Position numbers and translations under genes: made by a program
Assembly (NCBI GenBank): GCA_030674475.1
Contig: JAUSCZ010000029.1
Location: 2,357 to 66,356 of the forward strand
Source: Candidatus Omnitrophota bacterium
Lineage (GTDB): Bacteria > Omnitrophota > Gorgyraeia > Gygaellales > UBA12090
DNA: 64,000 bases
Direction of reading: 5' to 3'
Notes under the pieces: generated by a model
Databases searched by the model: none
Seen by the model: only the letters and a program-made list of their open reading frames with translations
Told to the model about the DNA's origin: nothing
Shown: in pieces, positions 9,001 through 25,878 of the stretch
Position numbering within the stretch: position 1 is the first letter of the stretch
Layout of the letters: the number at the start of each line of letters is the position of its first letter

Positions 9001-12000
9001 TAAAAAGTAGAATAAAAGACGCGAAGCGTAACTATATTATAAGAAAATTTGGGGCCAGGGGTTTAAATAAGGAGAATTACCGGCTGGATATAGGCGTAAG
9101 GATAACTTCTCTTGCGCCGGTTGAAGAAGAATACGGAGACCCGCTGGACAATCTTCCCGCGAAAGAGGAAGATCTTGAGGATGATTATGGGGAATCTGTG
9201 TATCAACGTAATGTCCTAATAACAATTAAAAATTATTTGGCTGAAAAGTCTATGAAGCCGGATAGAGAAAGGAGTATTATTTACGCGCGCCTGGGCATTG
9301 ATGAGAGAACGGGTGAATTTGGCAAATCACCATTGCCGATCAATGAGACGAGTAAGAGATTCGGGGTAACTAAATCTCGGATCTTCCAAATAACGAGTAA
9401 ACTGCGTGATTACGTTCAATCGGAAAGAGTAAAAGAATCGGGTAGTCTTCCCGAGCTATCCAAAAGGCAAAAGAGAAATAAGGACCGCGGTCAATTATTT
9501 GACAGCAAAGGCGAGTCCGGCAGCCCGCTGGGGGCGGGCATGTCATTAGAAAAAGGCAAAAGAGGCGCGACGGTTGCTTTGTATGATGGGAAAACTGCCC
9601 GGGCGGCGCGGAAGGCTGGGGGAGAAATATTTCTGGTCGGGGACTCTCTTTTGATGGTGCTCTATAAGCATACATCAACCAGAGAGTTGTCCGCGGACGA
9701 AGCGATGGAGATTATGTTAAAGCATACCCGAATGGTAAGCGAAGGCGCGCAAGATAAAAATCTTATAGAAATTATCGGAGATATGCCTTGCGGCTCATAC
9801 TATACTGTGGGGGCGGCATTAACCAACGCTAAGAAATTCATAGAAGCCGGGGCGACCGCGGTAAAGATTGAGGGAGGCCGTGATGCCGCGCCTATCGGTA
9901 AGGCTTTCACCGAGGCGGGAATTCGCTGGTATGGCCATATCGGCTATGAGCCGCAAAAGAACGACCTTAAGGCCTACGGTATTGAGGTGGTTGAGCAAAT
10001 GCGATTATTTTTTGATGCCTTAAGCCTCCAGGAGGCAGGGGCACAGGCCATTGTGTTAGAGATGGTTTACGCGAAAGTCGCCGCCGCCATAACCAGGCTA
10101 TTGAAAATTCCCACCATCGGAATCGGCTCCGGGCCGGATACGGATTATCAAATATTGGTAATCAACGATATTTTAGGCACCACGGATTTCCAGGGAAAAA
10201 AGAAGCCTTGTTTCGCGGTATCCTTTCGCCGGGAAGTCGAAGATCCGGAATCTCCCGAAGTTATCACGGAGGTTTTTGGAAGGTTTCAGGGGGCGATTAA
10301 ATCGGGAGTATATCCCCAGGAAAAAAATTATCATCGTCTGCCCGAATCTTTCGCGCGATGGGAGAGAAAACGGCAATTAAAAGAACTGCTTTGCGATTTG
10401 GAAAAAGCGCCAAGCATAACCTGGGCTGAAGCGGCGCGGGTCTTTGATGTAGCGGCGGAATTAGGCCTGAGGGATTCCGTTGAATTCTTTAAGAGGATCA
10501 GGCTGCTTTTGGCGCGAAAATACATTCAGGGCGGAGGCAATGTGGGGGAGCGCCTCAGCGAGATTGATAAAGCCTTAATGAGGATCGTTTCTGAGGTGGA
10601 GCTTTCCCGTTACTATAATATCGTCAGGGCAATAATCAGCGCGCTTCCTCATCAGGGCCTGGATTTAGACGGTATTATTAAAGAATCAGAGTATCTTCAT
10701 TGGTTGGTCGGGGATAATTCTCTCGCCCAAGACATCCGCGGAAAAGCCCATACCTGCCTGACTCCCGAGATATATAAGGATGTCCAGAATTACACGATGT
10801 TTCTTGCCGGGCAAAAAGAATTGCCGGGACGGTTTCCCCGGCCGAATGATATAAAAGCAAGAAGCTTAGTCGCGGACTATTTTCAACATACACAACCAGA
10901 CGCGAAAGGAAAGGAGATTTATACCGCCGTAAAACTATTACAGAAATATTTGGCTGATGTATATGGCCAAGAGGGACAGTGGTATATGGTCTCAAGGCTT
11001 GAATATTGGAGTGAAAAAGAGTCGGTTAAAAACAGCAATTTAGATAATCAGCTTTTAGGATTGATAAGGCGTATTAATAATAAAGAATATCTGCCCGCGG
11101 CGGAAATTATTTCAGAGATGAGGAAGGCGATATATAAACTCGTAAACCGGCAGGGGGCTAATGATACCTTAGAGTTTATTTACCTGGATCTTTTTCTGGA
11201 GAAAACATTGGATTGGTCAGCCGGCAATATCGTTAATGGCTATCTCAGAGCCCCGCGGGAAAATACGCGGATAGCCTTACAGCTGATTAAGCTGTTAGTG
11301 GAAAATACGATGTATTCCGGGTGGGCGGGGTTACATCTCTATTTGTTATCGCGAATAGTTGATACGGCAGACAGAACTTATTTACAATTAAAGAATATCC
11401 TGGAGCTTATTCTGCTGGATTTTACGGATATCCTGGATCAGATACACGCGGTGATTGAAATGCCTCTGGCGGTATACCGGCGGCATACTATAAGCACGGA
11501 ACAGGAAAAGCAAGAGCTCAAGGCGCGATTCAGAAGAAGCCTGGTTAGCTACGACAGGTCGCTTTATGTGATTGAAGAGGTCTTGCGGTATATTAAGAAT
11601 CTGCTGGAAACAGAAAAAGACAGCTATATCTTTGCGGATCCGGCAGTGCCGTCCGGATTGCCCGCGGTTATCCATATAGATTCGGTAAATAAAGAATTCA
11701 TTACCAAGAACGCGGATATACTCCAGGAGCAGTTTGGCGGTAAAGGCGCGAATATGATGGTGATGAACAGTTTAGGCGTGAAGGTCCCTAGCGGCTTTGT
11801 TTTTCCCATAACGGTTTCCCGGTATAAGCTGTACGAGACATACCCTGAGGAATTCGACCGGATGGTTATGCGGGAAATGAAAGTTCTGGAGGCTAATTGG
11901 TCAAAAAAACACCACGGGTTCAGTGGTGAAAACGCCTTATTCAGGTTTAATCCGGCTATTGATGAGCTTAGAGAAGGTGTAATTCCTCTTTTAGTCTCTA

Positions 12001-15000
12001 TAAGACCCGGCTCCATCCTTAAGATGCCGGGCAGCCTGCCCACAGTAACCAATGTAGGTATTAATGATGCAATAGCTGAATTTTTAGCCAATAAATTTAA
12101 TCCCCGCTTTGCCTATGATACTTATTCCAGATTCCTTGAATCTTACGGAGAAGGTGTCTATGGTATTTCCCGCGAGCGATTCACTCATCTTTGGGAAATT
12201 TATGCTTATGAGTCAGGCGTAAGTGATAGAAGCAAGATGAACGTCCGGCAGTTAAAAATACTTTGTGATAGATTCAAGAATCTTATTGTCGGGGAGCTGG
12301 AAATAATGGGGCAGGACAGCGGCGTTCTGGAGAGAGACTTAGCCAATCCTTTAGACCAGCTAAGGAAAGCGCTCAAGGCTGTCTTAAACTCATGGGAAAG
12401 AGAAGACGCGGTTACCTATCGCGCCTGCCACGGCATATCAAATAATTTTTACGCTTCCATTACCGTTCAGGCAATGGTTAATGGAAACTTAGACGCCGAA
12501 TCCGGGGCCGGGGTATTGATTTACCGGAGTGTTGAAGGCAGGATTATTATAACCGGAGAATATAGTTCCAACGCGCAGGGGCCGGACATCGCCGACGGCC
12601 TGATAAGGCCGGGTAAGATACATACGCTTAAAGAAAAAAATCCCCGCGCCTATAACCGGCTGTTAGAGGAAGCCGGGAAATTATCCGCGTGTTACTTTGT
12701 TGACCCTGAAATAGAGTTTACCGTCTCGGGTCAGGGGCAATTATGGTTTTTGCAGGTCAGCAGAGAGGCGCACAGAAAAAGAATTACCTGGAAGAAGCTA
12801 TCAGTGGAAGGACATAAACCGGCCGGCAGGGGAATAGGCGTCTATGGCGGAGGATTGCGCGGAAAAGTAATATTTGACGCCTTAGATATAACATCAATGA
12901 ATGAGGCCGCCCGGAAAGAAGGATTAGACGGGGCGATTATGGTGATGAATTATCCCCTGCCTTCGGATACGGGCTTGATTACCGGAAAGGGCCTTAAGGC
13001 TTTGCTTACCGCCAAAGGCGGTATCGGTTCCCACGGGGCAAGTATTGCCCGGGGCGACGGGATATACGCGATATTAGGCATTGATGAGTTGTTTTTTGAT
13101 GTTATGGCGGGGAAATGGTATCTGGGCGATAAGGAATTAAATAAAGGCGACATCTTAAGCCTGGATGCCCGGGCTGAGAGAGGCTATGTGTATCGGGGAT
13201 TAATTCCCTACGCGTCTGTTTCCTCCGCGATGGTGTATCCTGACGCGCGTGAGGTTATTAAGATAGGAATGACATCTTCGGCGATTTTCTCAAGGCGGGA
13301 AAATAGGCTGGCGCTCAATTTCAACGCGGGTTTGAAAAATACTAAAACCGGCAGCCCGCTGGAGGGAGAGGCTTCTTCTTTAGGCGGTTCGCTGAATCGT
13401 TGGGGGCGCGTTATTTATGAGAAACTATTTTATCCTTCAGACAATAAGGAAGGACAGCAAAGGTTCCGGACAATAGATGATGTTAAAAAGTCGCAAGAGG
13501 AAGACTCGCGGTGGTTAGAATTAAGTATTAAAACGTTGACAGAAGAAAACAGAGAAAAAATTTCAAAGCTATTGCCGGTGATGCGCGAGATTGATTCACT
13601 TGAGAAGGATTTAATCGGGCTTTCGGATGTTCAACTAAAAGCAAAAACAAATGAATTTAAGGCCCGGTTTAAGAATGGGGAAACTCTTGGCCAGCTTCTC
13701 CCTGAAGCTTTCGCGGTGGTCAGGGAGGCGTTCTTGAGGTTAAGCGGAAAGCGGATTTACAGCGTGCAAATGCTTGGGGGGATTGTCATTCATCAGAAAA
13801 AGGTCGCGGAAATTAAAACCGGCGAAGGCAAGACTTTTGTGGCCATGCTTCCGGCTTATTTAAGGGTATTGAGCGGACAAAAAGTCCATATTATTACCCA
13901 TAACCAATATTTGAGCACCAGGGATTTTAAGAAAACCGAATCTCTCTATCAATTCCTGGGAGTAACGGTAAATCTTAGGATTGATAGCCGCAAAAGGAAA
14001 ATCTTAAGTAAAATCTATGAGGCGGAGATCCTGTTTACCACAATAGAAACGGGATTTGATTTAATGAATGGAATTATTCCGTCGTCTCTACTGGCCGGCG
14101 CCTTTGCCATTATTGACGAAGCGGATTATTCCTTAATTGATTTAAATAACAATTCCTTAGTTCTTGTGCGAAAAAAAGGCGACAGCAAAGAATATTTTAA
14201 AGTTATTAAGAAGATATCCGCGAAAATGGAGCAGGGGTCGCATTATAAAATAGAATCAAAGTATCAGGTCTTGTTGACAGAAGCCGGCGTAAAATTTGTT
14301 AATGAATTTTTAGAAAGATTGAATTATCCATGGCTGAAAGGATATGAAGCCCAGACCAGGCTTTTAATTCAAATCTATCTGGCGACAGGTTTGCGTTATC
14401 AAAAAGGGATTGATTATTTGATCCATGGCGGCCAGGTTGTTCCTATTGACGAATTTACGGGGCGCCTTAAAGAAAGGCATCGGTTCGGATTGTATATTCA
14501 TCAACTTATTGAGCTAAGAGAGGGCATTAGGGTTGGGGGAGCTAAGCATGTTTTAACGTTGCCCGCGCCTGTGTTCTTTAATTATTATAAAGAGAAAGGA
14601 GGAATGACCGGCACGATTGATTTTCCCGTAGCGCGCCGTGAATTATCCAGGATTTACGGGATTTCCGACATTGTCGTTATCCCGACAAAATATCCCAGCC
14701 AGAGAATGGATTTACTCCCAAGAGTCTTTTTAGATGAGCGGAAACGAGATTCGAGCTTGGTGAGAAGAATTGAGGAATTGCGCGCGCAAGGAAACCCGGT
14801 TCTTTTGATCACCCAATCCGTGAATGAATCCGAAAGGTTAGAACGCTTATTGAAGGAACAGAAGCTCCCCTGCGAAATTCTTAATGCTGAAAATGAACGT
14901 GAAGAAAATAGAATAATCCACCAGGCAGGAGGCCAGGGGCAAATAACTATTTCAACTAATATGAGTGGCCGCGGAACAGATATTGTAATAGGTGAGCAGG

Positions 15001-18000
15001 TAGCAGAAAAAGGCGGCCTGGCGGTGCTGGTTACATTTAGGAGCGGCATAAGTCCGCGATTAGATTTTCAGGTGATGGGAAGGGCCGCAAGACAAGGTCA
15101 AAAAGGCAGCACGCAGTTTTTCCTTTATTTTGACCACTCGTTATATGGTTTTAAAAAAGCTGATTTCAAAATAAACGCGCAGGGGGATATAGATTTAGAG
15201 CGGCATCCCGATGTTTTGAGGCTTATTGACAATCAGCAAATGTCGGGGGAGGAAGCAATTTCTAAAAATCATCTTACGCAATTTATGCTGGATTATAGCC
15301 TTTATTTGCAAGAAAGATTTAATCACACATTTAAAAATTCGATTATGGATTTTTGTTATCGTTATATTCGTGAAAATGACAGGTTTTATAACGGTGTGTA
15401 TACCTCGGAGGTGTGGGACTCTTTAGAGTCCGCTTGGAGGGGTTTTCTTTATAGAAGACAGATATCTTTAACCTATCTTGATACTCTGATTTATACGAAT
15501 AAGATGTATAAAGAATTCAATGACCGAATGAGTAAGGATTTGGAAAAATCATTGTTTGAAGCAAAGCATATAAAGAAAATTCTGGCTAAAAAAGAGAAAA
15601 TAGATCAAGCATTGAAAAAGGCATGGAAAGAAACGACAGAACAATTTGTAAAGACTGAAGCTCGTATTCTAAAAGATATAGAATTGCCAGATAAGCCGCC
15701 GGATAAAATAAGATTAGAATATCGCTACCGAGAGGTTTCCAGTTCGCTGTGTCTCATCCGAGTATCAACACAAGGGGATTTGAAGCTAAATTCCGCCAGC
15801 CCGCTTGAGGAGGCGGGCCTGTCATTAGAAAAACATTCGGAAAATGGGGACGGTTCTATTTGTTTGAGCAGTCCGCTGGGAAAAGATAGAAAAACAGAAC
15901 CGTCCCGGTTTACGCGTTCACCTTTAGGCAGCAGTCCTCTGGCGGAAAGTGGAAAAAATATAATGGGAAGCTATTTTGATATTAAATTTAGGAATTCTGA
16001 AGAGTTTAGTACGGGGATACCTTTGTATGAAGGCTTTAGTTCCAGGATATCTTTGTCATTGCTTATAATGTGCGTTGCCTTTGCTTCTATAGCCATTTCT
16101 ATGATAAAGTTATCTTTTTTGTCTCTGCAAACATTAAGTTTAGTCCTGGGTTTTACTGCAATCGCCCTTAGCTTGATAACGGTTATTAATTCTTCAATAG
16201 TTAAAGGATCAACTTTTAATCTTTTCCTCTTGAAGACTTCCTTGATCTCTTCAATGAGCCTGTCAGAAATTATTAATGTGAATTTGCCTTCTTTAAAGGC
16301 ATGGTATATAGCTAAATTAGCGGGACTTTTAAGCAGGCAGGAGATGAAGATGTTGGTGTCAATGACCGCTTTTATATCGTGCATATACCTTTTTCCGGGA
16401 TATTTGGCATATCCTGTTTATTTCTTCCTCGGAGGGTATGCTTTTTATTTGGCCGCGTATATTATTTACCACATTATCCAGTCTTCTGGCCCAGGTAGTC
16501 TTTTCAAGCTTTCGCACCAATTGTATCTTTTTCTCAATAGGAAGTTTACCGATAAGCTTTTCTATATCAATAGTGGCAGTAATAGACATTTTATCTCCCT
16601 TTCTACTATAAAGCATACTATACTTTCAGTTATAAGTCAAGAATTTAGGGTGAAGCGCGGCACTTCTAACTTAACCGCTGCGGAAAAATGGGACGCTCAT
16701 ATTTTTGCCGGCAGCCCACTGGGGGAAAAGGAAAAAACGGCTGCTGCCCTTATTATTCAAATTATTTGCTCGGCATCCCCTGTATTTACATGTATCAGCG
16801 AAGGAAAGGAATATACTTATGGACAGCTTGTTGCCGGAACACTACTGGAAAATTATTTTAGTCATATTCACTGTTTGGGGGAGGAAAGCGGCTTTCCCCT
16901 TATTGTAGCTGACGGCCCTTCGGGAATAGGTAAAGGTATGTTGAAGCTTATGAAAGAATTTCTCGCGCGGTTACAGCTTGATATGTGTTATTGGCCTTTA
17001 GATATGTTTTTTATTGAGAGAGATAAACGTTACAAAATTATTAATGATGTGGTGGATGGTGTGATTCAAGGTGAAGATTATGATGAGGTGGGTTTTTGGA
17101 ATATGGCAGAAATTAAACGAGTCTTGAGCCGTAATAATGATTTCAAGAAATCAGGCAAGATGACAGAGAAGCTTTTTATACCAAAAGCATGGGATACAAT
17201 AAAGAAAGAATACCGGCCAAAAACAATAGTGTTAAAAAAGAAAAGCGTAGATGTTGTTGATTGGAAATATTCACATAAAGAAGAATTGCAAGCATATTAC
17301 GGTGATAATCCATTTCGTATACGTTTTATTGAAGATGAAGAAACGGTAAGAAAAAAGTATTATTCAAGAGAGCTTAAAACCCGCGGCCCGGGAAAAGATT
17401 TGGAAAGGCTTATGGCAGCTTACGATAAGTTGTTTGTGCCAAGTTATAAGCGGTATGTTCATCAATTAGGCGATAGATTTCCCATTTGTTTAGTAGATTT
17501 TTCTGATGATGAAGATTGCATTGCTTCTGACGGGTTCTCAAAGAAAGGGCGATCCCGGCCTTTTCAAGAAAAGGAGGCCGCTTTATATGCCGTCAACCCG
17601 ACCGTGGATGAGGCCGACAGCCCGGTGGGGGGAAATGATTCCGACTCATTTTCTAGTTCTCCAATGGATAGTAGCGATGATAGAGAAAAGATTAAAGAGG
17701 CAATCTCTGTGCTTAAATCAAGCAAAGGATACGGAATTCGCCTGGGGGCTTGTTTAAAAATTAAAGAAATAATAGAAAATAACCTATCTTTAGATGTGGA
17801 AGAATATTTTGATGACCTTTTAGGGCTTATGCTCGGCACAATAAGGGATAACGATGGTTCAAAGTCAACAGATGAAGTGTTTAGTGGCGTATGCGATATA
17901 ATTGGTTTATCTTTAAAAAGGAAAAAAAGCCTTGCCAATGAAGAGCGGATGGAAAAAATATTTAAGGTAGTTGATAATATAAGAGATTACGAATTTGGTT

Positions 18001-21000
18001 TTTCAAGGCTGTTAGGGCTTATCAGTAGTTTTATAATAAATAGTAAAATTTTTTCCGCAGAAACACAACAACCCGGAAAATCATTGGCCAAGCCGGTCTA
18101 TTATCAAAAAATCCTTACTATGGAATTTTCTTACGGACTAACGTTTACTCAATACGGCCTGACCAGGCTTGATATTTTTAACGCGGCAAATGAATTTATC
18201 CGTGCCAATCCTTTACTTGCTGAATATGAGGTTGATGCCCTGCGGCGAATTCTTCTTGATAGTGAATACTTTTTGAGCACGGCTATTGAAGATAGAGGTG
18301 TTATTGAACGCGCGTTACAAGCCACAATTGATATGACGTTAAAAATGATTGATTGTATCTCTGTAGTAATGTCATGTAACACTACATTCGTGAACAGGGA
18401 AATGATTGCGCCTATTCAATCTTTGCTCAGTAGCAGGCAGAAAATAATCAGGCTGTATGCCTTTAAAATAGTTCTGATTAATGCTGGCCAGTTAAATAAT
18501 CCACAGCTTTCTTTAGGAAAAATTATCCAAGAGACAGTTAAAAACCTGTCCGCGTATGGAATTAGCGTGGATAAAGCGATGTTCATTAAATTGTTAACCT
18601 TTATCTGGAGTCATCGTTTTGATGGTTTCAGTTTAGCTTCTTGGAGTATTTTATTGTCTTGTATATTAAAAAATGCTTCCCGGGAAAAGCAAGTTAAAGG
18701 ATTTTGGGGCGCTGTTCATAAATTCATAAACTGTTTTTCAAGAGAAGATACCAAAAATGTTTTAGCAGAGAATAAACATACGGATAATATTAATCGGATA
18801 GTCAGGATTTTGCGCTGGATAGACAAGCTTCATAAGCAATATCCTTCTATGGGCGCGGAAATACATTATTTTACAAAAGAAAGCGATATCTCCGAAAGAG
18901 AAAAAAACATATTCTTTGCCCAGTTCCTTGCGTTAACCCCAGGTCATAATTCTATACATCCTTATGAATATATTAAGGAAGCTGACTTTTTAGATATACG
19001 CGTTATGCCGGGGAGCTGGCCGGTTTTCTTTAGGCTGTGGAAAGAATTAAGTAGTTACGGTTTATTTGAACCCCTTAAGGATGATTATCCGCCGGCGGCG
19101 TATCACAGCTGTCTTAAGGGAGATTTTGGCCCGGATGTCCATAATTTTATTATCTCAAACACATTTTTAAATTGGCCTACTTTTTCTTCATTTGTCAGTA
19201 TCGACTACACTACAGGAAAAGACAGCGCGGAATTTGCTTTCGGGCAGGCCTATAATTATGTTGGCGTAACAATAAATGAATTGAGCGGCCTGATTGAATA
19301 TAGTTCTTCCCAGACCAATATTTTTGATTCATTTATAAAAACTTGTCATAAATTTAACGATACCCAAGGTAATCTTATTGGACAATATGATAGTTACCCG
19401 AGTTTTAACGATATTCCGAGAAAAGCTTTGTTGGCAATCGCCTTTTGCTCGCGAGACGAAAGATTGCAAAAAGTAAAAATAAAAGTTAAGGATATTATTT
19501 TTGATTGGCTGATTATGATAGGTATGCCCTTGGAATATATTGAAGGGTTACGTGATGAAGTATGGAGGGATGAGGGCGGAGGTATTACTACGACCCGTCC
19601 CCAATTAGCAAAGACATTAGAAAAAATAAAAGAAGTTATTGTCCTGCGGCAGGCCCAGCGGTATCTGGAAAGAGTGGACGATGATGCTAAGAAAGAATTG
19701 CAGGGATATATTAGCGTGAATGACATATTAGGGGCGGCGGGCATTCTGGATAAGATAAGACAAAGGGAGATTATCTATAAAGTTACCAGTTACACCCATC
19801 TTAATTTATGCGATCTCTCCGCGGAGGGCCTGAGAGGGGTGATTAACGAATTTAAGAAAAATCCCTTGAGCCCTGATTTAAAAGACTTAGAAAATAAAAT
19901 GGAAGCTGTCTTTAGGGAGATAAAAGGCATCATTTATACACCTTTAGAGGAAAAGATTATAGGATTATTTATTGATAACAGTTATCCTTTGGAGTCTGTC
20001 CCGGAGATTATTGACGATGTTCTGATAAAGGCTTTATCCGGCGGCACAAATGAAGAGGCAAAAACCCTTATAAACGAAATAGGCGGCCAGAAAGCTCAAG
20101 AAGCGCTTAAAGACATTAAAAAATCCTCCAGCCCGCTGGAGGAGGAGGAACTGCGCGAATTGCTCTCCGGCATTATCAGCTGTATAAACAACCCCTCACA
20201 AGCAGGATTAACCGGTTCCGTGGATAGTCTTTGTGAGTTTCTGCTGAAGCTGCCGTTGGGTGCTCTTAGAGAAAACCGTTTTTATAATTGTCTTCTTCAA
20301 GCCTTAAAGGGCGCGGTAAGCAAAACAGATTTAGGCGCTTTAAAGAATGATATATTAAAGCTGATTAATAACGCGATAGCGGTAAAGCTTAAATCTCTTC
20401 CCAGCGATTCAAACGAATATCAGCGCTATACGGAGACGCTTTTTTATCTGACTCTGCCGTATGTCAAAAAGGCGCTCAAGATGGGACAGATAAGGCTTTC
20501 GGATGATTTATTGGGAGAATTTTATCCCATCCTGTTATTATCTATTGACGGTTATGATGAGAGGAAAGGGGGAAATTTTCCCGCGTATTATAGTGATAGA
20601 CTTAAGAACGACGTGAACCAGCGAAGATTCGATACTTTTGCTTACGCGCGAGGTTCAGGAGAGGAGTATAGCGGAGAAGAATCTTGTTTTGAAACAGCCG
20701 CCGCTGAAAAAGCCAATAAAGAATACGTAAGCGCCGCGCGCGAAGAAGGAGCGGTTTGGGCTGCTAGCAAAAAAGAGATTGACGGCATAACGGATGAATT
20801 GTGGGAACAAATTAAGGGAGGAATAAAAGTTGTCTTGGCTTTAGGGGAAGAAAGAGTATCTCGTTTTGACAGCGGGTTATTAGAAAATTATTATAAACGG
20901 ATAAATGAATTTCGTGATGAAAATAAGATATTGCGCTGGAAAAAGCTAACGGAAGAATACCCGGGTTTGAGAGGTTTATATCGCGTTAAAGACCATTTTA

Positions 21001-22244
21001 TCAGGCCGCTGTATACTTTACTTATCCTATGGACGGCTTATATGGACGGGATTGCTAAAAGCCAGAGGGCGACCGCCAAAAGATTAGGCCTGTCAAGCCG
21101 GATGATAAATATCTATCTGAATAGGGATATCCGGCCTTTGTTGATGAGTAAGATAGCGGATATAGATATCAATTCTGCCAATAAGCAATTGAGGGATAAG
21201 AACAAAGAGAAAAGAAGCGGATTACAGATAATCAAGGATTATATCAACGGTAAATCCAGAAGTATTAATTTACCGTTGATTGGTGGCGCGCCCAGGAGCG
21301 GCATATCATTCTGCGGCCTGCGCGTGTATTTACCTGTATCTATAATCAAAACAAACAAAAAGTTTGAGGCTGTTATAAGAAGGCGCGCAAGAAAAAAACA
21401 TGGAAAACGGGTTTTTGTGATTACTCTTTACGCTGCCGGTTCTAAAAAGGAAAAGCTGGGCCATTGTCTTTGTCGTAATGTCAAAGGGAAATTAATGAGT
21501 TTAAACGCAAAGAGGTATGTAAATTTGACTCTAGACATAGAGAGAACAACAAAAGAGATATACATAAATTTCTTCATAAAGCTTAGAAAGAGAATAATTT
21601 CAATGCCTCCGGTTGAAGCTATGGAAGCGCGAACCTATAAAACGGGCAGCTTTTATTTGAAGGGGTTAGGTTTTGTCTCTTTGAATCTATCGCGTCATAA
21701 TTACAACTTTGCTATTATTGGCGTTAATGAAACATCCGTCATCGCTGAATTTGACAGCTTAGATCGTCCAGGCCATAAGGAATGGAAGATGTTTTCCGGC
21801 AGAGGTATGGATAAAAGTGTTGCTTGCCGGTGGGGCATAGCCGTGATAGAGGAGAGAATGAACGCGTTAATGTTTTATCCTAATAATAACAAACAGCAGG
21901 CGATATCTTTTACCTTAACCCCGGCCTACCGAAAGTCGCGTGAATTGAAAAAAGAAATCAGCCCGCCTGCTCGCCTCGCGGCCCTCGGCTTCGCCGAGAG
22001 GCGAGCGAAGCCGAGGGCCGGCGAGGCAGGCAGCCCGCTTATTGTCCGGGGTGTGGGTTGTTGCGTGCGCACGGGGGTTAGTACGGAAGAAAAATGCGGT
22101 TGGGGTAACTTTATGGAAGTTGAGGATTTTAGGGCTGGAATGATTTATCCGGCAGTAGACAAAAGCTATAAGAATATTTTTGGGCCAAAAGCAGCAGTAT
22201 TATTTTCTCATTCTACGCGGGTATTCTGCCGCGGGCCGCCATGA
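93..22244 (+). CDS. Giant multidomain ORF (at least 7383 aa; 5' partial, frame open back to window position 3). It is a chimera-like string of protease, receiver, sigma-r4-like, PanB, PEP-utilising, SecA-like and P-loop domains joined by repeated SPLG-encoding GC-rich linkers. It may be a polyprotein, a repeat-mediated gene fusion, or an assembly artefact.
   Basis: The ORF track gives one uninterrupted frame of 22152 nt. Checked by hand, frame 0 has no stop from nt 3 to 93, so the ORF continues upstream of the window. Domain motifs read directly from the translation are GDSGAP, KILIVED...[24 protein letters not shown], GEGKT...IIDEAD...GMTGT and VGDSL...VKIEGG...[15 protein letters not shown]. 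Other genes in the window end with TAA, TAG and TGA, so the standard code applies. A stop-free stretch of this length cannot arise by chance in roughly 42% GC DNA. Confidence 0.5.
   Translation: [7383 protein letters not shown]
229..334 (+). repeat. Copy 1 of a 106-bp near-identical direct repeat encoding [34 protein letters not shown]. Its 3' end carries the SPLG core.
   Basis: ccgcctcaccgctgattcttctcgtggaaaacgaagaacatcttaagcagaagtatgaaggttggctggaatggcgggctccgaaatccgtgagcagcccgctagg. It recurs at 8140-8245 with about 6 mismatches. Confidence 0.85.
712..1245 (+). other. Trypsin-like (S1/chymotrypsin-fold) serine protease domain inside the giant ORF. A predicted N-terminal transmembrane helix lies at about 390-470.
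   Basis: The motifs occur in His-Asp-Ser order: GSGFVV...ILTYHQ (His region), [10 protein letters not shown] (Asp region), then RGDSGAPYL (catalytic Ser motif, nt about 1153-1170) and IGVSWFGG. The preceding hydrophobic stretch is [31 protein letters not shown]. Confidence 0.55.
2715..2752 (+). repeat. GC-rich linker repeat, subfamily C ([13 protein letters not shown]).
   Basis: ggggacggttctatttatttgagcagtcctgtgggggg pairs with 15846-15882. The adjacent motif ggggggaaatgactc also recurs at about 17631-17650, and ggggtcagaccttgaaatgtgaaaa recurs at 1536-1562 and 2652-2678. Confidence 0.65.
3588..3640 (+). repeat. GC-rich linker repeat, subfamily B (SPLG + [11 protein letters not shown]).
   Basis: ggcagcagcccgctggggcaagacaggaaaatagaagtgcctccatcttc is paralogous to 6891-6945. 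Confidence 0.7.
6891..6945 (+). repeat. GC-rich linker repeat, subfamily B, second copy (SPRG + [12 protein letters not shown]).
   Basis: ggcagtccgcgggggcaaagcaggaaaatagaagcgtccccattttcatc. Confidence 0.7.
7014..7310 (+). other. CheY-like response-regulator receiver domain inside the giant ORF. It has no adjacent output domain.
   Basis: [67 protein letters not shown]...TPVIM...GAKEFISK. The acidic pocket, the phospho-accepting Asp in ISDFDMPG, and the conserved Thr and Lys positions are all present. Confidence 0.75.
8140..8245 (+). repeat. Copy 2 of the 106-bp direct repeat, 7.9 kb downstream of copy 1, in the same frame and orientation.
   Basis: Direct comparison with 229-334. Differences are aggcag/aagcag, tataaa/tatgaa, gatatc/gaaatc and ctggat/ctaggg. 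Confidence 0.85.
9261..9420 (+). other. Sigma-70 region-4-like helix-turn-helix inside the giant ORF.
   Basis: [50 protein letters not shown] resembles the sigma-70 r4 consensus (L..RER.V...RFGL......TL.E.G..FGVTRERIRQIE.KALRKLR). I did not recognise regions 2 or 3, so confidence is low. Confidence 0.3.
9540..10340 (+). other. Full-length PanB (3-methyl-2-oxobutanoate hydroxymethyltransferase) homolog embedded in the giant ORF. It starts with its own Met directly after an SPLGAG linker.
   Basis: [47 protein letters not shown]...VKIEGG...[10 protein letters not shown]...[14 protein letters not shown]...[24 protein letters not shown]...[14 protein letters not shown] aligns along its whole length with E. 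coli PanB (TAYDY...VGDSLGMT...VKIEGG...CGHLGLTPQS...LEAAGAQLLVLECVP...[24 protein letters not shown]...ESGVYPGEEHSF). Confidence 0.75.
11680..13212 (+). other. N-terminal ATP-grasp and phosphohistidine domains of a PEP-utilising enzyme (pyruvate phosphate dikinase / PEP synthase-like). The C-terminal PEP-binding TIM barrel is not apparent.
   Basis: [26 protein letters not shown] matches the PPDK N-terminal GGKGANLAEM...P.GF motif. [20 protein letters not shown] (about 13005-13060) matches the mobile phosphohistidine domain motif (GGxTSHAAIIAR.G.P). Confidence 0.6.
13556..15140 (+). other. Divergent SecA-like preprotein-translocase ATPase motor inside the giant ORF, comprising NBD1, the preprotein cross-linking domain and NBD2. 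Helical-scaffold-like sequence continues to about 15700.
   Basis: [37 protein letters not shown]...[54 protein letters not shown]...[11 protein letters not shown]...[28 protein letters not shown]...GMTGT...[11 protein letters not shown]...[14 protein letters not shown] is collinear with the canonical SecA N-terminus and both RecA-like domains. Several motifs are degenerate (IIDEAD in place of DEVD-IL), which suggests a paralogue. Confidence 0.65.
15846..15882 (+). repeat. GC-rich linker repeat, subfamily C, second copy ([13 protein letters not shown]). It sits in a cluster of three SPL cores at 15790-15935.
   Basis: ggggacggttctatttgtttgagcagtccgctgggaa. Confidence 0.65.
15971..16384 (-). 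CDS. PIN-domain protein, VapC-like putative toxin of a toxin-antitoxin pair (137 aa). It lies antisense inside the giant ORF frame.
   Basis: MHDIKAVIDTNIFISCLL...LIISDRLIEEIKEVF...DKKDNFIIEMAIEAKATHIISNDKDI shows the canonical PIN acidic residues (D-T-N..., E, D, NDKD). It is an intact 137-aa ORF preceded by a small overlapping ORF. Confidence 0.8.
   Translation of the reverse strand: MHDIKAVIDTNIFISCLLKSPANLAIYHAFKEGKFTLIISDRLIEEIKEVFKRKRLKVDPLTIEELITVIKLRAIAVKPRTKLNVCRDKKDNFIIEMAIEAKATHIISNDKDILELKPSYKGIPVLNSSEFLNLISK
16359..16616 (-). CDS. Putative cognate antitoxin (85 aa, or 75 aa from the second Met). It overlaps the PIN gene by 26 nt.
   Basis: A small upstream ORF overlapping the toxin gene is the typical type II toxin-antitoxin layout. 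I did not recognise a specific fold. Confidence 0.45.
   Translation of the reverse strand: MLYSRKGDKMSITATIDIEKLIGKLPIEKKIQLVRKLEKTTWARRLDNVVNNIRGQIKSIPSEEEINRICQISRKKVYARYKSGH
21962..22040 (+). repeat. GC-rich imperfect palindrome (about 26-bp arms) fused to the last SPL core, located near the 3' end of the giant ORF.
   Basis: gcctgctcgcctcgcggccctcggcttcg / cgaagccgagggccggcgaggcaggc are reverse complements with a few mismatches. A shuffled half-copy occurs in-frame in the outer-membrane gene at 33884-33910. Confidence 0.7.
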
Positions 22245-22304
22245 GCCATCCGGGATAAGTTTTTTATAGCTAACTTGTTTATTCATAAAAAGTTACGATT
22301 TTAA

Positions 22305-22332
22305 TTGAAAAGTATAAAATAAATGGTAAAAT
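22305..22332 (+). promoter_or_regulatory. Sigma-70-like promoter upstream of the first PilZ gene (TTGAAA, 16-nt spacer, TAAAAT).
   Basis: The spacing and hexamers match the consensus, and a GGGGGAGG RBS follows. Confidence 0.4.
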
Positions 22333-22353
22333 AACAAATTAATGGGGGAGGTG

Positions 22354-22725
22354 ATGGAAATGGAAAGATTGTTTGAGCGCCGGGTATTTGAGAGGATTAA
22401 CGCGGATTTCAGCGGATGGTACGCGTTAAAAGATGAGGGCGGCCAGATTCAGGGTGAGTTCTGGGGGCTTGATTTTAGCGGAAGCGGAGTCAGGGTCCAT
22501 TCTGTTAAAGAGATTGCTGAAGATAAAGTTTTAGAGGTGAGTATAACCTCATCAACCCTAAGTCAGCCGATACAGGAAACAGCCCGGGTGGCCTGGCAAA
22601 GGAGGATTGAGCCTGGTTTGTGGCAGGCAGGATTAAAGTTTTACCAGCCCAGGCTGATGCATTTTTGGCCGCTGGTAGAGTTAAAACAACACGAGATAGG
22701 GCAGTCAGGCGAAAGCGCGGGTTAA
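22354..22725 (+). CDS. PilZ-domain protein (c-di-GMP-binding family).
   Basis: The N-terminal RRVFER..., DFSGSGVRV and a type-1 PilZ beta-barrel-like remainder. The start is placed after the GGGGGAGG RBS; the ORF track starts at 22342. Confidence 0.55.
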   Translation: MEMERLFERRVFERINADFSGWYALKDEGGQIQGEFWGLDFSGSGVRVHSVKEIAEDKVLEVSITSSTLSQPIQETARVAWQRRIEPGLWQAGLKFYQPRLMHFWPLVELKQHEIGQSGESAG

Positions 22726-22791
22726 TGACCAACACCCAAACAAATGCTTTACGCTTACGATCTTGAATTTTAACACGAGAGGGGGTGCCAG

Positions 22792-23178
22792 ATGAGAATT
22801 GAAGAAAACAGAAAGTTCGCGCGTTGGAATATCAGTCGTCCGGTGCGCTTTAGCCTGGCGGGTAAAGATAATGAGGAGGAGAAAATGGCCCTGCTTAAGG
22901 ATATCAGCTTCGCCGGGGCCCGGATGTCTCTCTTTGAAAGCCTGCGCCTGAATGATAAGCTGGATATGTTTTTGGAGATTCCGGATGAAGAACACGCCAT
23001 ACACTGCGAAGGAAAAGTAGTGTGGCAAAAGTCGCTTGAGGATATGAGTTCTCCACCATTCGCCTGCGGTTTGTCTTTTACCAGGATAAAAGACCAGGAT
23101 AAAGAAAAAATGTTTAAATATATGAGTCAGAACGCCACCGATGAAGTAAAGAAGAAATGGTGGGAAGGGGTAAAATAA
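22792..23178 (+). CDS. PilZ-domain protein, a second paralogue.
   Basis: RKFARW...DISFAGARMSL matches the RxxxR...D.S.GG PilZ signature. A GAGAGGGGG RBS precedes the ATG. Confidence 0.6.
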   Translation: MRIEENRKFARWNISRPVRFSLAGKDNEEEKMALLKDISFAGARMSLFESLRLNDKLDMFLEIPDEEHAIHCEGKVVWQKSLEDMSSPPFACGLSFTRIKDQDKEKMFKYMSQNATDEVKKKWWEGVK

Positions 23179-23340
23179 GTAGTTTCCACTGAAAAAGCAT
23201 GGAAACTATGATTACGGCGATTAAAAAGCAGATTACAGAGATTAAACCTTAGGCGATAAATCGCTGTAATCTTATTAAAAATCCTTGTAATCAAGTTCTT
23301 TCCCTTTGCGATAAACTCGGGAAAGAACTTAAAAATTAAG

Positions 23341-23369
23341 TTGACGAAGCGCTGGAATTATGGTAAATT
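23341..23369 (+). promoter_or_regulatory. Sigma-70-like promoter for the ABC-transporter/glycoside-hydrolase operon (TTGACG, 17-nt spacer, TAAATT).
   Basis: Hexamers and spacing; it lies downstream of a cluster of three hairpins at 23186-23333. Confidence 0.4.
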
Positions 23370-23488
23370 TTAGTAATATTCTTTGCTATGTTGTGAACAG
23401 TGACAGAAGGTAATTATTTAGTGGTGTATTAAAATGATTTATAAAGTATAAAATAACGGCTTACTAAAAGAAAGAGGAGTTTTGGGAT

Positions 23489-24829
23489 ATGATGGAAACA
23501 ACACCTAACAGAAGTAAGGGACTAAAAAGTTATTCAGGATTAGTTTTATTTTTTATTTTCTCTTTTATGTTTTTTGGGTGCGTTCCGAAAAAAGAAGAAT
23601 CTTTAACCGGAAAAACAGTTACTATCTGGCACTGGATGACTGATAGAGATCAGACCTTTCAGGAATTAGCCAGGAGGTATGAAGAGAAAACCGGAGTTAG
23701 GGTTGATTTTGAACTTTACGCTCCTTCGGATGCCTATTCCCAGAAGGTGCGGGCCGCGGCCCAGGGCGAGAATCTTCCCGATATCTTTGGCATCCTGGCC
23801 GAGAAGCGGGATTTCTCCTCTTTTGTCAAGGCCGGTTATGTGAGTGATTTGACCGCTTATATGAAGGAAAATAACGCTGAATGGGAAAAGAAATTTTTTC
23901 CCAAAGCCCTGGCAGTGAATGAATTCATAGAAGGGAATTCTTACGGCGTCCCAGCCGGGATATATGGAGTGCCTGTAGATGTAATGACCATAACGATGCT
24001 GTATAATAAAACCTTGTTTAAGGAATTGGGTTTAGACCCCAAGAGGCCGCCGGCAACCTGGAATGATTTCCTGGCTGTGGGAGAGAAAATAAAAGAGGCC
24101 AAGAAACAGGGCTTGGTCAGCGGCTGGGGTGAGATATGGATGATTGATTGTCTGGCCAGTAATTTTGCCTTTAATATTATGGGAAAGGATAAGTTTTTAG
24201 CTACTCTCCGGGGTGAAGTTCCTTATACTGACCCGGACTGGATCCGGGTTTTGACTTTATTCAAGGAAATGCAGGATAGCGGATTATTATATAACGGTTT
24301 GGTGAGTATGGTGAATAAGACCGCGGAACAAATCTTTGCCAATGAGAGGGCGGTCTTTGCCTTTAACGGCTCCTGGGGGGTTAACGTGTATGACGGGATG
24401 AACCCAAAATTGGATTATGGGGTGATGCTTCTTCCCAGGGTTTCAGATAAATTTCCGGTGAGTGTCTGGGGAGGGGCAGGTTCTTCCTTTATGGTTTATA
24501 ATAAGTCGAAAAATAAAGATGAAGCAATTAAGTTTTTAAAATGGCTGACTGAGAAAGAACAGCAGGTTTTCTTGGCCGCCCAGACCAAAAACCTTCCGGC
24601 CAACAAAGAGGCTATAGGTAATATTTCGCCGATAATGGCCCAATTTTCTTTAGGCCTGGAATACGCCACCCATCCTAATACCTGGGGATTTTCCGAGTCT
24701 TCCCAGGTAACCGAGGCCTTTGATAAAGGGGTGCAGTCAATAATCATCGGGGAAAAGACGCCGGAGCAGGTAGCCGGCGAAGCGCAGAAAATCAAGGAAC
24801 GGGAGTTAGCCAAGAAAAAGAGATTATAG
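23489..24829 (+). CDS. Sugar ABC transporter substrate-binding lipoprotein (solute-binding family 1).
   Basis: A lipoprotein signal peptide (...FMFFGC) and the fold-family hallmarks of MalE/UgpB-like substrate-binding proteins. Two permease genes follow. Confidence 0.85.
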   Translation: MMETTPNRSKGLKSYSGLVLFFIFSFMFFGCVPKKEESLTGKTVTIWHWMTDRDQTFQELARRYEEKTGVRVDFELYAPSDAYSQKVRAAAQGENLPDIFGILAEKRDFSSFVKAGYVSDLTAYMKENNAEWEKKFFPKALAVNEFIEGNSYGVPAGIYGVPVDVMTITMLYNKTLFKELGLDPKRPPATWNDFLAVGEKIKEAKKQGLVSGWGEIWMIDCLASNFAFNIMGKDKFLATLRGEVPYTDPDWIRVLTLFKEMQDSGLLYNGLVSMVNKTAEQIFANERAVFAFNGSWGVNVYDGMNPKLDYGVMLLPRVSDKFPVSVWGGAGSSFMVYNKSKNKDEAIKFLKWLTEKEQQVFLAAQTKNLPANKEAIGNISPIMAQFSLGLEYATHPNTWGFSESSQVTEAFDKGVQSIIIGEKTPEQVAGEAQKIKERELAKKKRL

Positions 24830-24843
24830 AATAACGAACACCG

Positions 24844-24897
24844 AACAAGGAATATCGAATGATGCCTGCCGGCAGGCGAAATTCATCATTCCTTGTT
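24844..24897 (+). terminator. Nested hairpin after the substrate-binding-protein gene. The inner stem is a perfect GC palindrome, gcctgccggcaggc.
   Basis: aacaaggaat...gcctgcc ggcaggc...attccttgtt. The downstream T-run is weak. Confidence 0.35.
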
Positions 24898-24929
24898 TAA
24901 TATTCAAAGAGCCCGCAGCTTACGAAATA

Positions 24930-25820
24930 ATGAAAATTAAACTCAAATCCGCTTTAGAGAATTACCTTTTTGTCCTCCCTGCCTTTGTTATTTTCTCTAT
25001 TTTTTATATTTATCCTTTTTCTCAGGTGTTTTTCTTAGGGTTGTATGAGTGGGACGGTATTTTACCGACCAAGACCTTTGTGGGTTTAAGTAATTTTAAG
25101 GATATATTTTTCTCTGACCCGATTTGGTGGAAGTCAATGCTTCAGGCCGGCTGGATTACCATAATTGCCCTGATCTTTCAGAATGTCCTGGCTTTTCTCC
25201 TGGCTTGGGCCTGCGATAGAGAGATAAAACTTAAAAACTGGTACCGGTTGATTTTTTTCCTGCCGCCTATTCTTTCCGAGGTGGTGGTGGGTTTGGTCTG
25301 GCAGTGGATTTTGGAGGGCAATTACGGGTTGTTAAACAGCTGGCTGAATAATTTAGGGTTAGCCCATTTAACCCGGAATTGGCTGAACGATCCCAAAACC
25401 GCCCTTAACTGCGTGGCTATTGTGCACTGTTGGAAGGGTTTTGGTTGGGGATTTCTGATATTCCTGGCCGGCCTGCAGACCATACCCCGAGAACTTTATG
25501 AGGCGGCCAGGGTTGACGGAGCTAGTTCCTGGACAGCCTTTAGAAAGATCACTCTTCCTTTAATGGTTCCGGTGGCCATCTTAGTGGCCATACTTACTAT
25601 ATTAGGCACAATGCAAGCCTTTGTCTTGATAATTGCCATGACCGGAGGCGGCCCGGCCTATCATACCCAGGTGCCGGTTTTAAGGATCCTGGCCTCAATG
25701 CGGGATTCCGGGCGTTTCGGATATGCCTGCGCCCAGGGAATTGTCTTTGGGATTATTTTAGTAGCTGTTTCTTTTATCCAATACCGCTTCTCCAAGAGAA
25801 GCCAGGCCCGAGGCGCGTAA
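24930..25820 (+). CDS. Sugar ABC transporter permease (MalF/UgpA-like).
   Basis: Six predicted transmembrane segments and the EAA loop EAARVDGASSWTAFRKITLPLM. Confidence 0.85.
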   Translation: MKIKLKSALENYLFVLPAFVIFSIFYIYPFSQVFFLGLYEWDGILPTKTFVGLSNFKDIFFSDPIWWKSMLQAGWITIIALIFQNVLAFLLAWACDREIKLKNWYRLIFFLPPILSEVVVGLVWQWILEGNYGLLNSWLNNLGLAHLTRNWLNDPKTALNCVAIVHCWKGFGWGFLIFLAGLQTIPRELYEAARVDGASSWTAFRKITLPLMVPVAILVAILTILGTMQAFVLIIAMTGGGPAYHTQVPVLRILASMRDSGRFGYACAQGIVFGIILVAVSFIQYRFSKRSQARGA

Positions 25821-25878
25821 AAACAGAGCTAAGAACTAAGAGTTAAGAGCTAAGAAAAATAATAAAAGCGACCAAATC

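Follow-up and report, generated by a model that had tools for sequence, protein, structure and literature searches.

A probable VapBC-like toxin-antitoxin cassette nested in antisense orientation within a modular giant open reading frame of Omnitrophota

A VapBC-like toxin-antitoxin operon, predicted from sequence, is likely to form a cassette of about 750 nt that lies inverted and nested within a modular giant open reading frame (ORF) of Omnitrophota. The arrangement is new and its parts are known. The window analysed is a 64,000-nt stretch of contig JAUSCZ010000029.1 in which the plus-strand ORF at 93-22244 has no stop across the toxin-antitoxin pair, as the first-pass annotation of this DNA had stated and as the ORF list confirms. 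The features are given below with the basis for each in brackets.

93-22244, plus strand: giant ORF of the Omnitrophota type, 7383 codons, 22,152 nt (ORF list)
15796-15879, plus strand: two further copies of the junction motif (at 15796 and 15868) with short fragments between (repeat families)
15842-15911, strand not assigned: hairpin (about 15 bp) located past the stop codon of the PIN gene (inverted repeat, terminator-like call, fold z-score -2.3)
15931-15942, plus strand: junction motif copy GCAGTCCTCTGG, upstream cassette boundary (homology among four contexts starts here)
15963-16661, plus strand: stretch of 233 codons over which the giant frame reads through in antisense without a stop, hydrophobic (ORF list, transmembrane scan)
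15971-16384, minus strand: intact PIN-domain toxin gene, 137 aa (PIN_3, TIGR00305, acidic residues, variable sites)
16359-16589, minus strand: antitoxin gene of 76 aa when started at the second ATG; the ORF at its longest runs from 16616 (homologue lengths, position upstream of PIN)
16612-16640, minus strand: putative promoter-like site of the toxin-antitoxin operon, TTGACT, 17 nt, TATGCT (consensus scan)
16711-16722, plus strand: junction motif copy GCAGCCCACTGG, downstream cassette boundary (homology among contexts ends at the motif copy)

The earlier identification of the minus-strand gene as encoding a PIN-domain protein was borne out. The 137-aa product matched Pfam PIN_3 from end to end (E 8.7e-20) and NCBIfam TIGR00305 (E 2.3e-21, 76 bits against a cut-off of 29), and D9, E46, D88, D91 and D110 correspond to acidic columns that are 81-99% conserved in an alignment of 162 homologues, so that the homologues do keep the catalytic residues whose loss would have spoken against the annotation. 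A PDB sequence search with the PIN protein returned nothing at E <= 0.01 and an exact-product look-up found no record, the nested gene possibly being uncalled in the source assembly.

Upstream, the ORF list gives a minus-strand ORF of 85 aa (16359-16616) that overlaps the PIN ORF by 26 nt. This ORF had been named as the antitoxin, and while it stands as the overlapping partner of the toxin gene, its start is most likely 16589 rather than 16616, because the ATG at 16589 is preceded by AAGGGAG and six of six antitoxin homologues in the databases were called as 76-80 aa. The antitoxin matched NCBIfam VapB15 weakly (E 8e-5, 23 bits, below the cut-off of 80), and an AlphaFold model from seven sequences was all-helical with four helices and, at a pLDDT of 61, too poor for a fold search. 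All relatives examined have this same small gene ahead of their PIN gene, the antitoxin family was found upstream of PIN in L002, L004, L005, L084, L085, L087, L090, L164-L173 and L175, and no fewer than eight distinct loci conserve the two genes as a pair. The PIN matches together with this conserved, overlapping upstream gene uphold the assignment to the type II toxin-antitoxin modules. VapBC-type modules (PIN_3 / TIGR00305) share with this pair a short antitoxin gene that runs into the start of a toxin gene of about 135 aa with the conserved acidic residues, and a scattered, horizontal distribution over many phyla. Unlike in those modules, the pair here lies wholly within an opposite-strand ORF to which its codons are adapted, and the antitoxin, which has no match in Pfam, was not recognised as a member of the RHH, AbrB or PHD families.

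The operon probably has its own putative promoter. The first reading had proposed looking for one on the minus strand at 16617-16700, and the TTGACT/TATGCT site is at the same place as the motif it singled out, within a block conserved among the cassette copies; TTGACT is invariant in four cassette contexts and the promoter-like spacing shifts by 3 nt in relatives. As a consensus hit the site is weak and not enriched over shuffles. The hairpin at 15842-15911 may be a terminator of the minus-strand transcript, although a weak candidate.

Antisense frames of 29 ordinary genes of the window, taken as the baseline, carried a stop every 16-26 codons and their longest open run was 144 codons. When both proteins were back-translated with host codon usage, the giant frame was open in about 0.03-0.1% of trials, and the probability of an open frame was about 1e-3 for both the window and L084 and 4e-3 for L087, the frame arrangement being identical in the three. 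The antitoxin, which is codon-aligned with the giant frame, uses TTA, CTA or TCA in none of its 12 Leu and Ser codons, and the PIN gene, in an offset frame, uses them in 13 of 23. This low probability and the recurrence among the nearest PIN relatives argue that the openness of the giant frame over the pair is not chance and that it is kept stop-free by selection. The view that such a frame is improbable unless selected or engineered is right as to selection and wrong as to engineering.

A total of 160 PIN homologues were gathered regardless of context. The same antisense frame was open in all seven of the nearest relatives among them, and the PIN tree contained a clade of six in which it was open in six. 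Three of the seven are nested in open frames of about 20 kb otherwise unrelated to this giant ORF, L084 in one of at least 6591 codons and L087 and L088 in one of at least 6800 codons; the hosts are typical mosaic giant ORFs whose similarity to the present one is limited to the toxin-antitoxin part. Among GTDB genomes the frame was open in one of 80 PIN homologues, itself nested in an 829-aa antisense ORF. At 88% nucleotide identity the cassette was open in 10 of 10 short-read-style contigs from several groundwater-type samples, and the sole indel in these copies was of 3 nt in a stretch non-coding for the pair. Altogether the arrangement was found in at least five divergent lineages and more than 10 independent assemblies, and every cassette copy found was in antisense orientation. 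The expectation that a real gene would not cross a toxin-antitoxin module in antisense is contradicted by these relatives. Nor were stops probably purged here after a recent insertion of the module, as had been suggested, because the stop-free state extends over a whole clade of this toxin-antitoxin family, whose members keep one frame arrangement at about 40% protein identity, and the cassette appears to move as a ready-made unit.

The neighbours of the pair in L004 and L090 look like separate ORFs, yet the antisense frame is open, and a simple argument that the giant ORF must stay intact is therefore insufficient there. A similar reading of L003 as separate genes was rejected since the interruptions there consist of N stretches. 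Indels seem frequent in the long-read-style assemblies L002 and L174, judging from an ABC-transporter binding-protein gene (446 aa in the window) split into four pieces, and for this reason their frame breaks, one of them a 1-nt homopolymer indel within the antitoxin gene, were not counted as genuine.

Antitoxin codon positions 3, 2 and 1 are positions 1, 2 and 3 of the giant frame. Substitutions between the window and L002 in the antitoxin-only part numbered 15, 6 and 5 at antitoxin positions 3, 2 and 1, and variable sites among four distinct cassettes numbered 19, 7 and 9 in the antitoxin (p = 0.03) and 52, 14 and 24 in the PIN gene, in the same order. Giant-frame third positions vary least and first positions most in the antitoxin and promoter parts, where purifying selection at the protein level was not seen on both strands. 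The placing of substitutions on minus-strand wobble positions argues that protein-level selection acts on the toxin-antitoxin pair and that the plus frame is merely kept stop-free. In the PIN part the wobble positions are common to both frames, so some protein constraint on the plus frame is possible there.

Codon usage, which had been proposed as a check, did not separate the strands (log-odds for PIN 0.155, for the giant frame 0.170), and GC by codon position gave no separation either. The plus-strand read-through segment had no Pfam match and no homologues by word-index search, and an exhaustive search with its translation gave six matches, of which the top one, inspected at the DNA level, was an 891-aa read-through ORF of the module in L002 and two of the other five were long (1800 and 4026 aa). 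These results fit the earlier description of the plus-strand translation as an L/S/I/F-rich by-product of antisense reading. Antisense overlapping gene pairs have been reported in bacteria, and the present case resembles them in having two long ORFs on opposite strands of the same DNA. It differs from them in that protein-level constraint was seen on one strand only, the other being merely open, and in that the gene nested inside is not an orphan ORF but part of a two-gene operon of a well-recognised kind.

The boundaries of the cassette are copies of a 16-nt junction motif, GCAGCCCGCTGG, read as SSPLG. About 20 copies, every one plus-strand and sharing one frame, separate all the modules of the giant ORF, while the rest of the window has none, and the motif is also found in L002. 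The peptide it encodes is conserved, and within the motif conservation is lowest at wobble positions; its flanks showed no conserved sequence and no conserved hairpin. The cassette was found in four different neighbourhoods with homology beginning and ending at motif copies, and close relatives show different module orders at the motif. Fragments between the copies at 15796 and 15868 are identical to other module ends (9530-9554 and 2708-2749) and look like recombination scars. Judged from these alignments, the cassette changes place as a whole, already free of stops.

In integron arrays the cassettes are separated by attC sites, which are imperfect hairpins of 60-140 nt, and an IntI integrase is present. 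Chromosomal (super)integrons carry self-promoted toxin-antitoxin cassettes, sometimes inverted, among promoterless cassettes, and these have been proposed to stabilise the arrays against deletion. The present pair is similar in being putatively self-promoted within an array joined by a repeated site, but the array here is one continuous reading frame joined by a translated 16-nt motif. An integron array was rejected (no attC-like features at the junction and no integrase in the giant ORF and ten downstream genes), as was an invertible segment (no inverted repeats flanking the cassette, all copies found antisense). The giant ORF and the ten downstream genes scanned contained no recombinase domain. 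A permissive Rfam scan of 1-23.5 kb gave one chance-level match only, and therefore no known ribozyme or RNA at the junctions.

The giant ORF is a mosaic of in-frame modules including PanB-like, receiver, PPDK-like and divergent SecA-like ones and many unknown ones, and all of its Pfam matches are in one single frame. SecA_DEAD, SecA_PP_bind and P-loop_SecA are present by Pfam and SecA_SW is absent. Its closest relatives are Omnitrophota/Omnitrophica MAGs. Part of it was seen again in an independent assembly (a Logan contig that does not cover the toxin-antitoxin region) and relatives were found in several metagenomes, for which reason the giant ORF, on assembly evidence, is natural and not engineered. 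The suggestion that it is composite or artificial is accordingly retained for the composite part, given the modules between junction motifs, and dropped for the artificial part. An N-terminal module containing GDSG matched no protease family in Pfam, and without that support its reading as a polyprotein protease remains speculation. Other long minus-strand ORFs within the giant ORF (3221-3745, 11624-12091 and 14654-15049, plus 27 shorter) yielded no further nested gene, the three longest having no NCBIfam match and the shorter ones being judged low-complexity by eye.

Giant ORFs of Omnitrophota have been documented (Seymour et al. 2023, PMC10066038; West-Roberts et al. 2023, bioRxiv 10.1101/2023.11.21.568195). 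They share with the present one a length over 20 kb without interruption, an Omnitrophota host, a receiver domain, poor conservation, a scarcity of annotated domains, transmembrane segments, and divergent SecA_DEAD and preprotein-binding domains that lack the scaffold/wing part; translation as one product is published for V. archaeovorus only. Opposite-strand nested genes, an in-frame junction motif in many copies and motif-linked differences in module order between close relatives, all seen here, are not mentioned in the passages of this literature reached by term searches.

It is conceivable that the cassette is truly dual coding and that its plus-strand translation has itself been selected to span the membrane as a module of the giant protein, perhaps as an anchor by the SecA-like module. 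Three of the five transmembrane-like stretches of the whole 7383-aa product lie in the antisense segment over the pair, published giant proteins are reported to have many transmembrane helices, some adjoining SecA-like domains, and both the open frame of L004 and the shared wobble positions of the PIN part leave room for plus-frame constraint. The variation in the antitoxin and promoter parts is however the opposite of a coding pattern for the giant frame, a hydrophobic product is what the antisense reading of a K/E/D/I-rich gene would be expected to give, and the cassette is not always beside the SecA-like module (4.5 kb away in L002), so that we consider dual coding unlikely. That the frame is open to hold ribosomes on a 22-kb transcript, avoiding Rho-type polarity or decay, with modules made from internal starts or by cleavage at junctions, is quite improbable in our estimation. 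It would fit the conserved junction peptide with its variable wobble positions, the ATG after a purine-rich stretch past the motif with which some modules begin (e.g. the PanB-like one at 9540), and the question of cleavage of giant products, left open in the literature, but many junctions are without a nearby in-frame start and no protease family was detected for the GDSG-containing module.

Coincidence, misassembly or a decaying relic would account for the open frame only with very low probability. A single case is not astronomically unlikely, as only about five stops are expected, and the toxin-antitoxin region of the window is outside the independent contig; against this stand the recurrence across lineages and assemblies and the intact state of both genes, with catalytic residues and a coding-type substitution pattern.

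If the pair is instead, as is likely, an inverted cassette nested in the giant ORF, its persistence would follow from the constraint that an unbroken ORF can accommodate a gene with its own stop codons only if that gene is on the opposite strand or out of frame, and thus only with a stop-free antisense frame. Such a form would arise by excluding TTA, CTA and TCA from the codon-aligned antitoxin and by avoiding T or C before TA- and CA-initial codons in the PIN gene. Selection would act on proteins on the minus strand and only against stops and frame-shifting indels on the plus strand, whose product over the cassette would be a hydrophobic spacer set by the toxin-antitoxin sequence. Recombination at the in-frame junction motif, borne also by the other modules of the host, would change the position of the cassette. 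The giant frame may stay open for downstream modules that need uninterrupted translation or transcription coupled to translation, and the pair may be selfish or, by analogy with chromosomal integrons, may stabilise a recombination-prone array.

More tentatively, the giant ORFs of this lineage could be arrays of in-frame cassettes linked by the SSPLG junction, in which selfish genes evolved stop-free antisense forms to ride inside. The translated 16-nt junction would let modules be exchanged, deleted and inserted with the frame preserved and may also mark cut points of the product, and some of the many transmembrane helices described in giant proteins would in that case come from nested genes read through in antisense. 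The gene caller omitted the nested genes on a long contig (gene list of L002) and split the giant ORF instead on short contigs, so that toxin-antitoxin censuses and maps of transmembrane and domain content in giant proteins may be biased. The finding is of a whole two-gene operon on the opposite strand within another ORF, with measurable, statistically supported selection against antisense stops and recurrence in several lineages. Since module boundaries are exposed and module order differs between close relatives, it bears on whether giant bacterial genes encode single proteins or strings of separable modules.

The giant ORF carries on its opposite strand an intact and conserved toxin-antitoxin operon, nested antisense to a host frame that avoids stops and is preserved by the indels observed, in a mobile cassette bounded by copies of a junction motif. 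The features concerned are listed below.

Features of the giant ORF and of the nested toxin-antitoxin pair
93-22244, plus strand: giant ORF, a single ORF of 7383 codons (table 11)
15971-16384, minus strand: PIN toxin gene, full-length PIN_3 domain (Pfam E 8.7e-20)
After the PIN stop: hairpin of ~15 bp
16589, minus strand: likely ATG start of the antitoxin gene (76 aa product), preceded by AAGGGAG
16640-16612, minus strand: promoter-like site (TTGACT, 17 nt, TATGCT), a weak consensus match in a block conserved among cassette copies
322, 1465, 1621, 2737, 3592, 4240, 5581, 5932, 6892 and 7363, plus strand: junction motif copies 1-10
8233, 9520, 13351, 15796, 15868, 15931, 16711, 17617, 20128 and 22030, plus strand: junction motif copies 11-20

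The minus-strand PIN-toxin/antitoxin pair proposed by the first-pass annotation was confirmed. The PIN product satisfied the NCBIfam equivalog TIGR00305 ('toxin-antitoxin system toxin component, PIN family'), and conserved acidic residues in its homologues, set beforehand as the test that could refute the assignment, were present, with D9, E46, D88, D91 and D110 falling in columns that were 81-99% acidic across 162 aligned homologues. The upstream ORF (16359-16616), which overlaps the PIN ORF by 26 nt, stood as the antitoxin gene: in all relatives inspected, the same small gene preceded PIN. Its start is probably better placed at 16589; close database homologues were 76-80 aa in six of six cases. 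Similarity to VapB15 antitoxins was sub-threshold only (NCBIfam), and the predicted structure was a four-helix model of low confidence. For the promoter expected upstream of the pair, the promoter-like site is a candidate.

The giant ORF had been suspected of being artificial, and this did not hold. It is taken to be natural because a part of it recurs in the independent Logan assembly of run SRR13727527 (an exact match to window 19182-26760), because the nearest database relatives of its SecA-like part were Candidatus Omnitrophica/Omnitrophota MAG proteins, and because such ORFs are documented for the phylum. Published accounts describe Omnitrophota giant ORFs of >20 kb with divergent SecA and receiver domains and little other annotation (PMC10066038; bioRxiv 10.1101/2023.11.21.568195). 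Pfam domains in the window's giant ORF, all in one frame, were ketopantoate hydroxymethyltransferase, response-regulator receiver, PPDK/PEP-utiliser and SecA_DEAD, SecA_PP_bind and P-loop_SecA, and most of the remaining sequence had no Pfam family match; ordinary genes follow downstream. The second module (321-1463), which had no Pfam match, combined a TM-like stretch with a GDSGAP motif recalling serine proteases of the chymotrypsin-like type, and might bear on how the giant product is processed.

An open antisense frame of this length had been called improbable by chance, and the statistics agreed. Stops made up 3.9-6.4% of codons in the three antisense frames of 29 ordinary window genes, where the longest open run was 144 codons versus 215-233 at the nested pair. 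When both protein sequences were fixed and synonymous codons redrawn from host usage, ~5 stops were expected in the giant frame, which was open in ~0.03-0.1% of trials. Because the codons of the antitoxin gene line up with those of the giant frame, each TTA, CTA or TCA in the antitoxin would create a stop in the giant frame; these codons were used at none of the antitoxin's 12 Leu/Ser positions and at 13 of 23 in the PIN gene, which is read in an offset frame.

Close cassette copies (85-92% nt identity) were obtained from L002, a 339-kb contig, from ten of 11 recorded contigs (L164-L173) representing several groundwater-type samples, and from a Logan contig (L175). Among four distinct cassette sequences, variable sites at codon positions 3/2/1 numbered 52/14/24 in the PIN gene and 19/7/9 in the antitoxin gene (giant-frame positions 1/2/3; chi-square p = 0.03). 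Their concentration at minus-strand wobble positions indicates that the minus-strand proteins are conserved. The giant-frame third position was again least variable in the stretch that does not encode the pair, and the plus frame is without protein-level constraint where testable. Nevertheless no copy had acquired a stop in the plus frame, and the sole indel among short-read-style copies was 3 nt long. This indel, an insertion (TAC) in the promoter region of the pair near window ~16620, seen in a comparison with L165, L168 and L175, alters the spacing of the putative promoter and preserves the giant frame.

Coding-like codon usage and homologues of the plus-strand segment had been named as signs against the first reading. 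Codon-usage scores of the two strands were uninformative by themselves. Searched exhaustively with HMMER against 1.84 billion proteins, the plus-strand translation matched only six; the best was the read-through ORF of L002 (891 aa), and the other five, two of them long (1800 and 4026 aa), are known at the protein level alone.

As a control free of ascertainment by the flagged window, PIN relatives were fetched regardless of context, with GTDB genomes and metagenomes supplying 80 each. The corresponding antisense frame was open across the PIN gene in one of the 80 GTDB loci (L005), where the gene likewise sits inside an antisense ORF, of 829 codons. Top metagenome matches were nested in antisense frames of at least 6591 codons (L084) and at least 6800 codons (L087 and L088), lower bounds as the frames fill the fetched loci, contrary to the expectation that a real gene would not cross such a module in antisense. 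The frame was open in all seven nearest relatives by distance and in 6/6 of the tree clade around the window PIN. The L084 and L087 giant ORFs are mosaics of glycosyltransferase, methyltransferase, HATPase, epimerase and transporter domains, and resembled the window's giant ORF in the read-through segment alone. Both share its frame arrangement (antitoxin codon-aligned, PIN and host frame sharing wobble positions), with back-translation probabilities of an open frame of 1e-3 and 4e-3, respectively.

Several further arrangements were observed among the relatives. In L004 (6021-9512) and L090 the opposite strand had, in place of one giant ORF, neighbouring ORFs of 230-460 aa that were separate or overlapped. 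The frame antisense to the pair was open all the same (231 and 223 codons), which is beyond what the simple model explains. Another type of nested gene may exist in L087, where a 134-aa ORF at 5770-6174, on the plus strand of the locus and antisense to the giant frame there, matched three families of retropepsin-like aspartyl proteases below threshold (E 1e-5 to 8e-4). Tandem arrangements were seen as well: in L084 the nested pair has an additional PIN copy, truncated at the N-terminus, immediately upstream (9218-9553), and the 1-kb contig carrying P0126 has a PIN/antitoxin/PIN series.

The junction motif GCAGCCCGCTGG, with ~16 informative nt read as S-S-P-L-G, occurred in ~20 copies in the giant ORF and was absent from the other 42 kb of the window. 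In 16-nt form, gccgGCAGCCCGCTGGgg (SSPLG) separates the modules, all copies being plus-strand and in one common frame. Thirteen copies were present in L002. Where the window, L002 and L003, another close relative, share homology, the blocks start or end within a few bases of motif copies. Module order differed among the three: next after the SecA-like module in L002 comes the counterpart of the window module at 20129, and in L003 another module than in the window precedes the SecA-like one. The cassette, 4.5 kb upstream of the SecA-like module in L002 and just downstream in the window, was found in four different neighbourhoods with motif copies at both homology edges. Wobble positions held the least information within the motif, though still well conserved, which fits translation of the motif and recent DNA-level spread alike.

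Between three close motif copies (window 15796-15942) lie short end-fragments of other modules, which look like scars of past recombination; 15809-15833 repeats the 25 nt that open the PanB-like module (9530-9554), and 15839-15880 repeats the end of another (2708-2749). A 120-nt direct repeat (224-343 and 8135-8254, 93% identical, in frame) encodes SASPLILLVENEEHL.QKY.GWLEWRAP.SVSSPL, its terminal part being the junction motif, and no stable fold was found on either strand (z about -0.5). The unrelated L084 giant ORF carries a different repeated element (35-76 nt, read as ..CGGWA.L..) at 597, 2358, 9599, 10487, 11547, 18754 and 20238, with copies on both sides of its nested pair, paralleling the SSPLG junction.

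A rival reading is dual coding, in which the plus-strand segment would serve as a genuine membrane anchor. It is of interest as an option for the PIN half, since the 7383-aa product has only five Kyte-Doolittle TM-like stretches and three of them fall in the read-through segment (window 16035-16409, aa 5315-5439), antisense to the toxin-antitoxin genes; it is nevertheless unlikely, as the substitution pattern opposes it where testable. Chance, misassembly or a decaying relic is very improbable, being contradicted by the recurrence of the arrangement and by the coding-type substitution pattern. That the frame is open for an RNA-level reason, the avoidance of polarity, appears quite unlikely and would be a version of the main model, not an independent explanation.

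The main model supposes that the modules further downstream depend on translation without interruption, or on transcription coupled to translation, and that the host frame therefore has to stay open. For a gene with its own stops, the opposite strand would then be the only possible place inside an ORF of this kind, and the hydrophobic plus-strand product would be a by-product of a K/E/D/I-rich gene read backwards. Convergent transcription could couple toxin-antitoxin expression to that of the giant gene. Toxin-antitoxin cassettes in chromosomal integrons have been proposed to stabilise the array against deletion, and a like role in this repeat-rich array is one option for the nested pair, which may otherwise be selfish cargo.

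In the passages of the Omnitrophota giant-gene literature returned by term searches, there was no mention of opposite-strand nested genes, junction motifs or module shuffling, the nearest passage, in one preprint, giving an antitoxin as a flanking gene. Further literature searching found nothing on a toxin-antitoxin pair nested antisense in a giant ORF. Both kinds of component are already known; what is new is how they are arranged, together with the evolutionary signature of this arrangement. It may be easily missed in annotation because gene callers can leave out the pair on long contigs, as in the L002 gene list, and break up the host ORF where contigs are short. Part of the TM counts published for giant proteins could stem from antisense read-through of nested genes.
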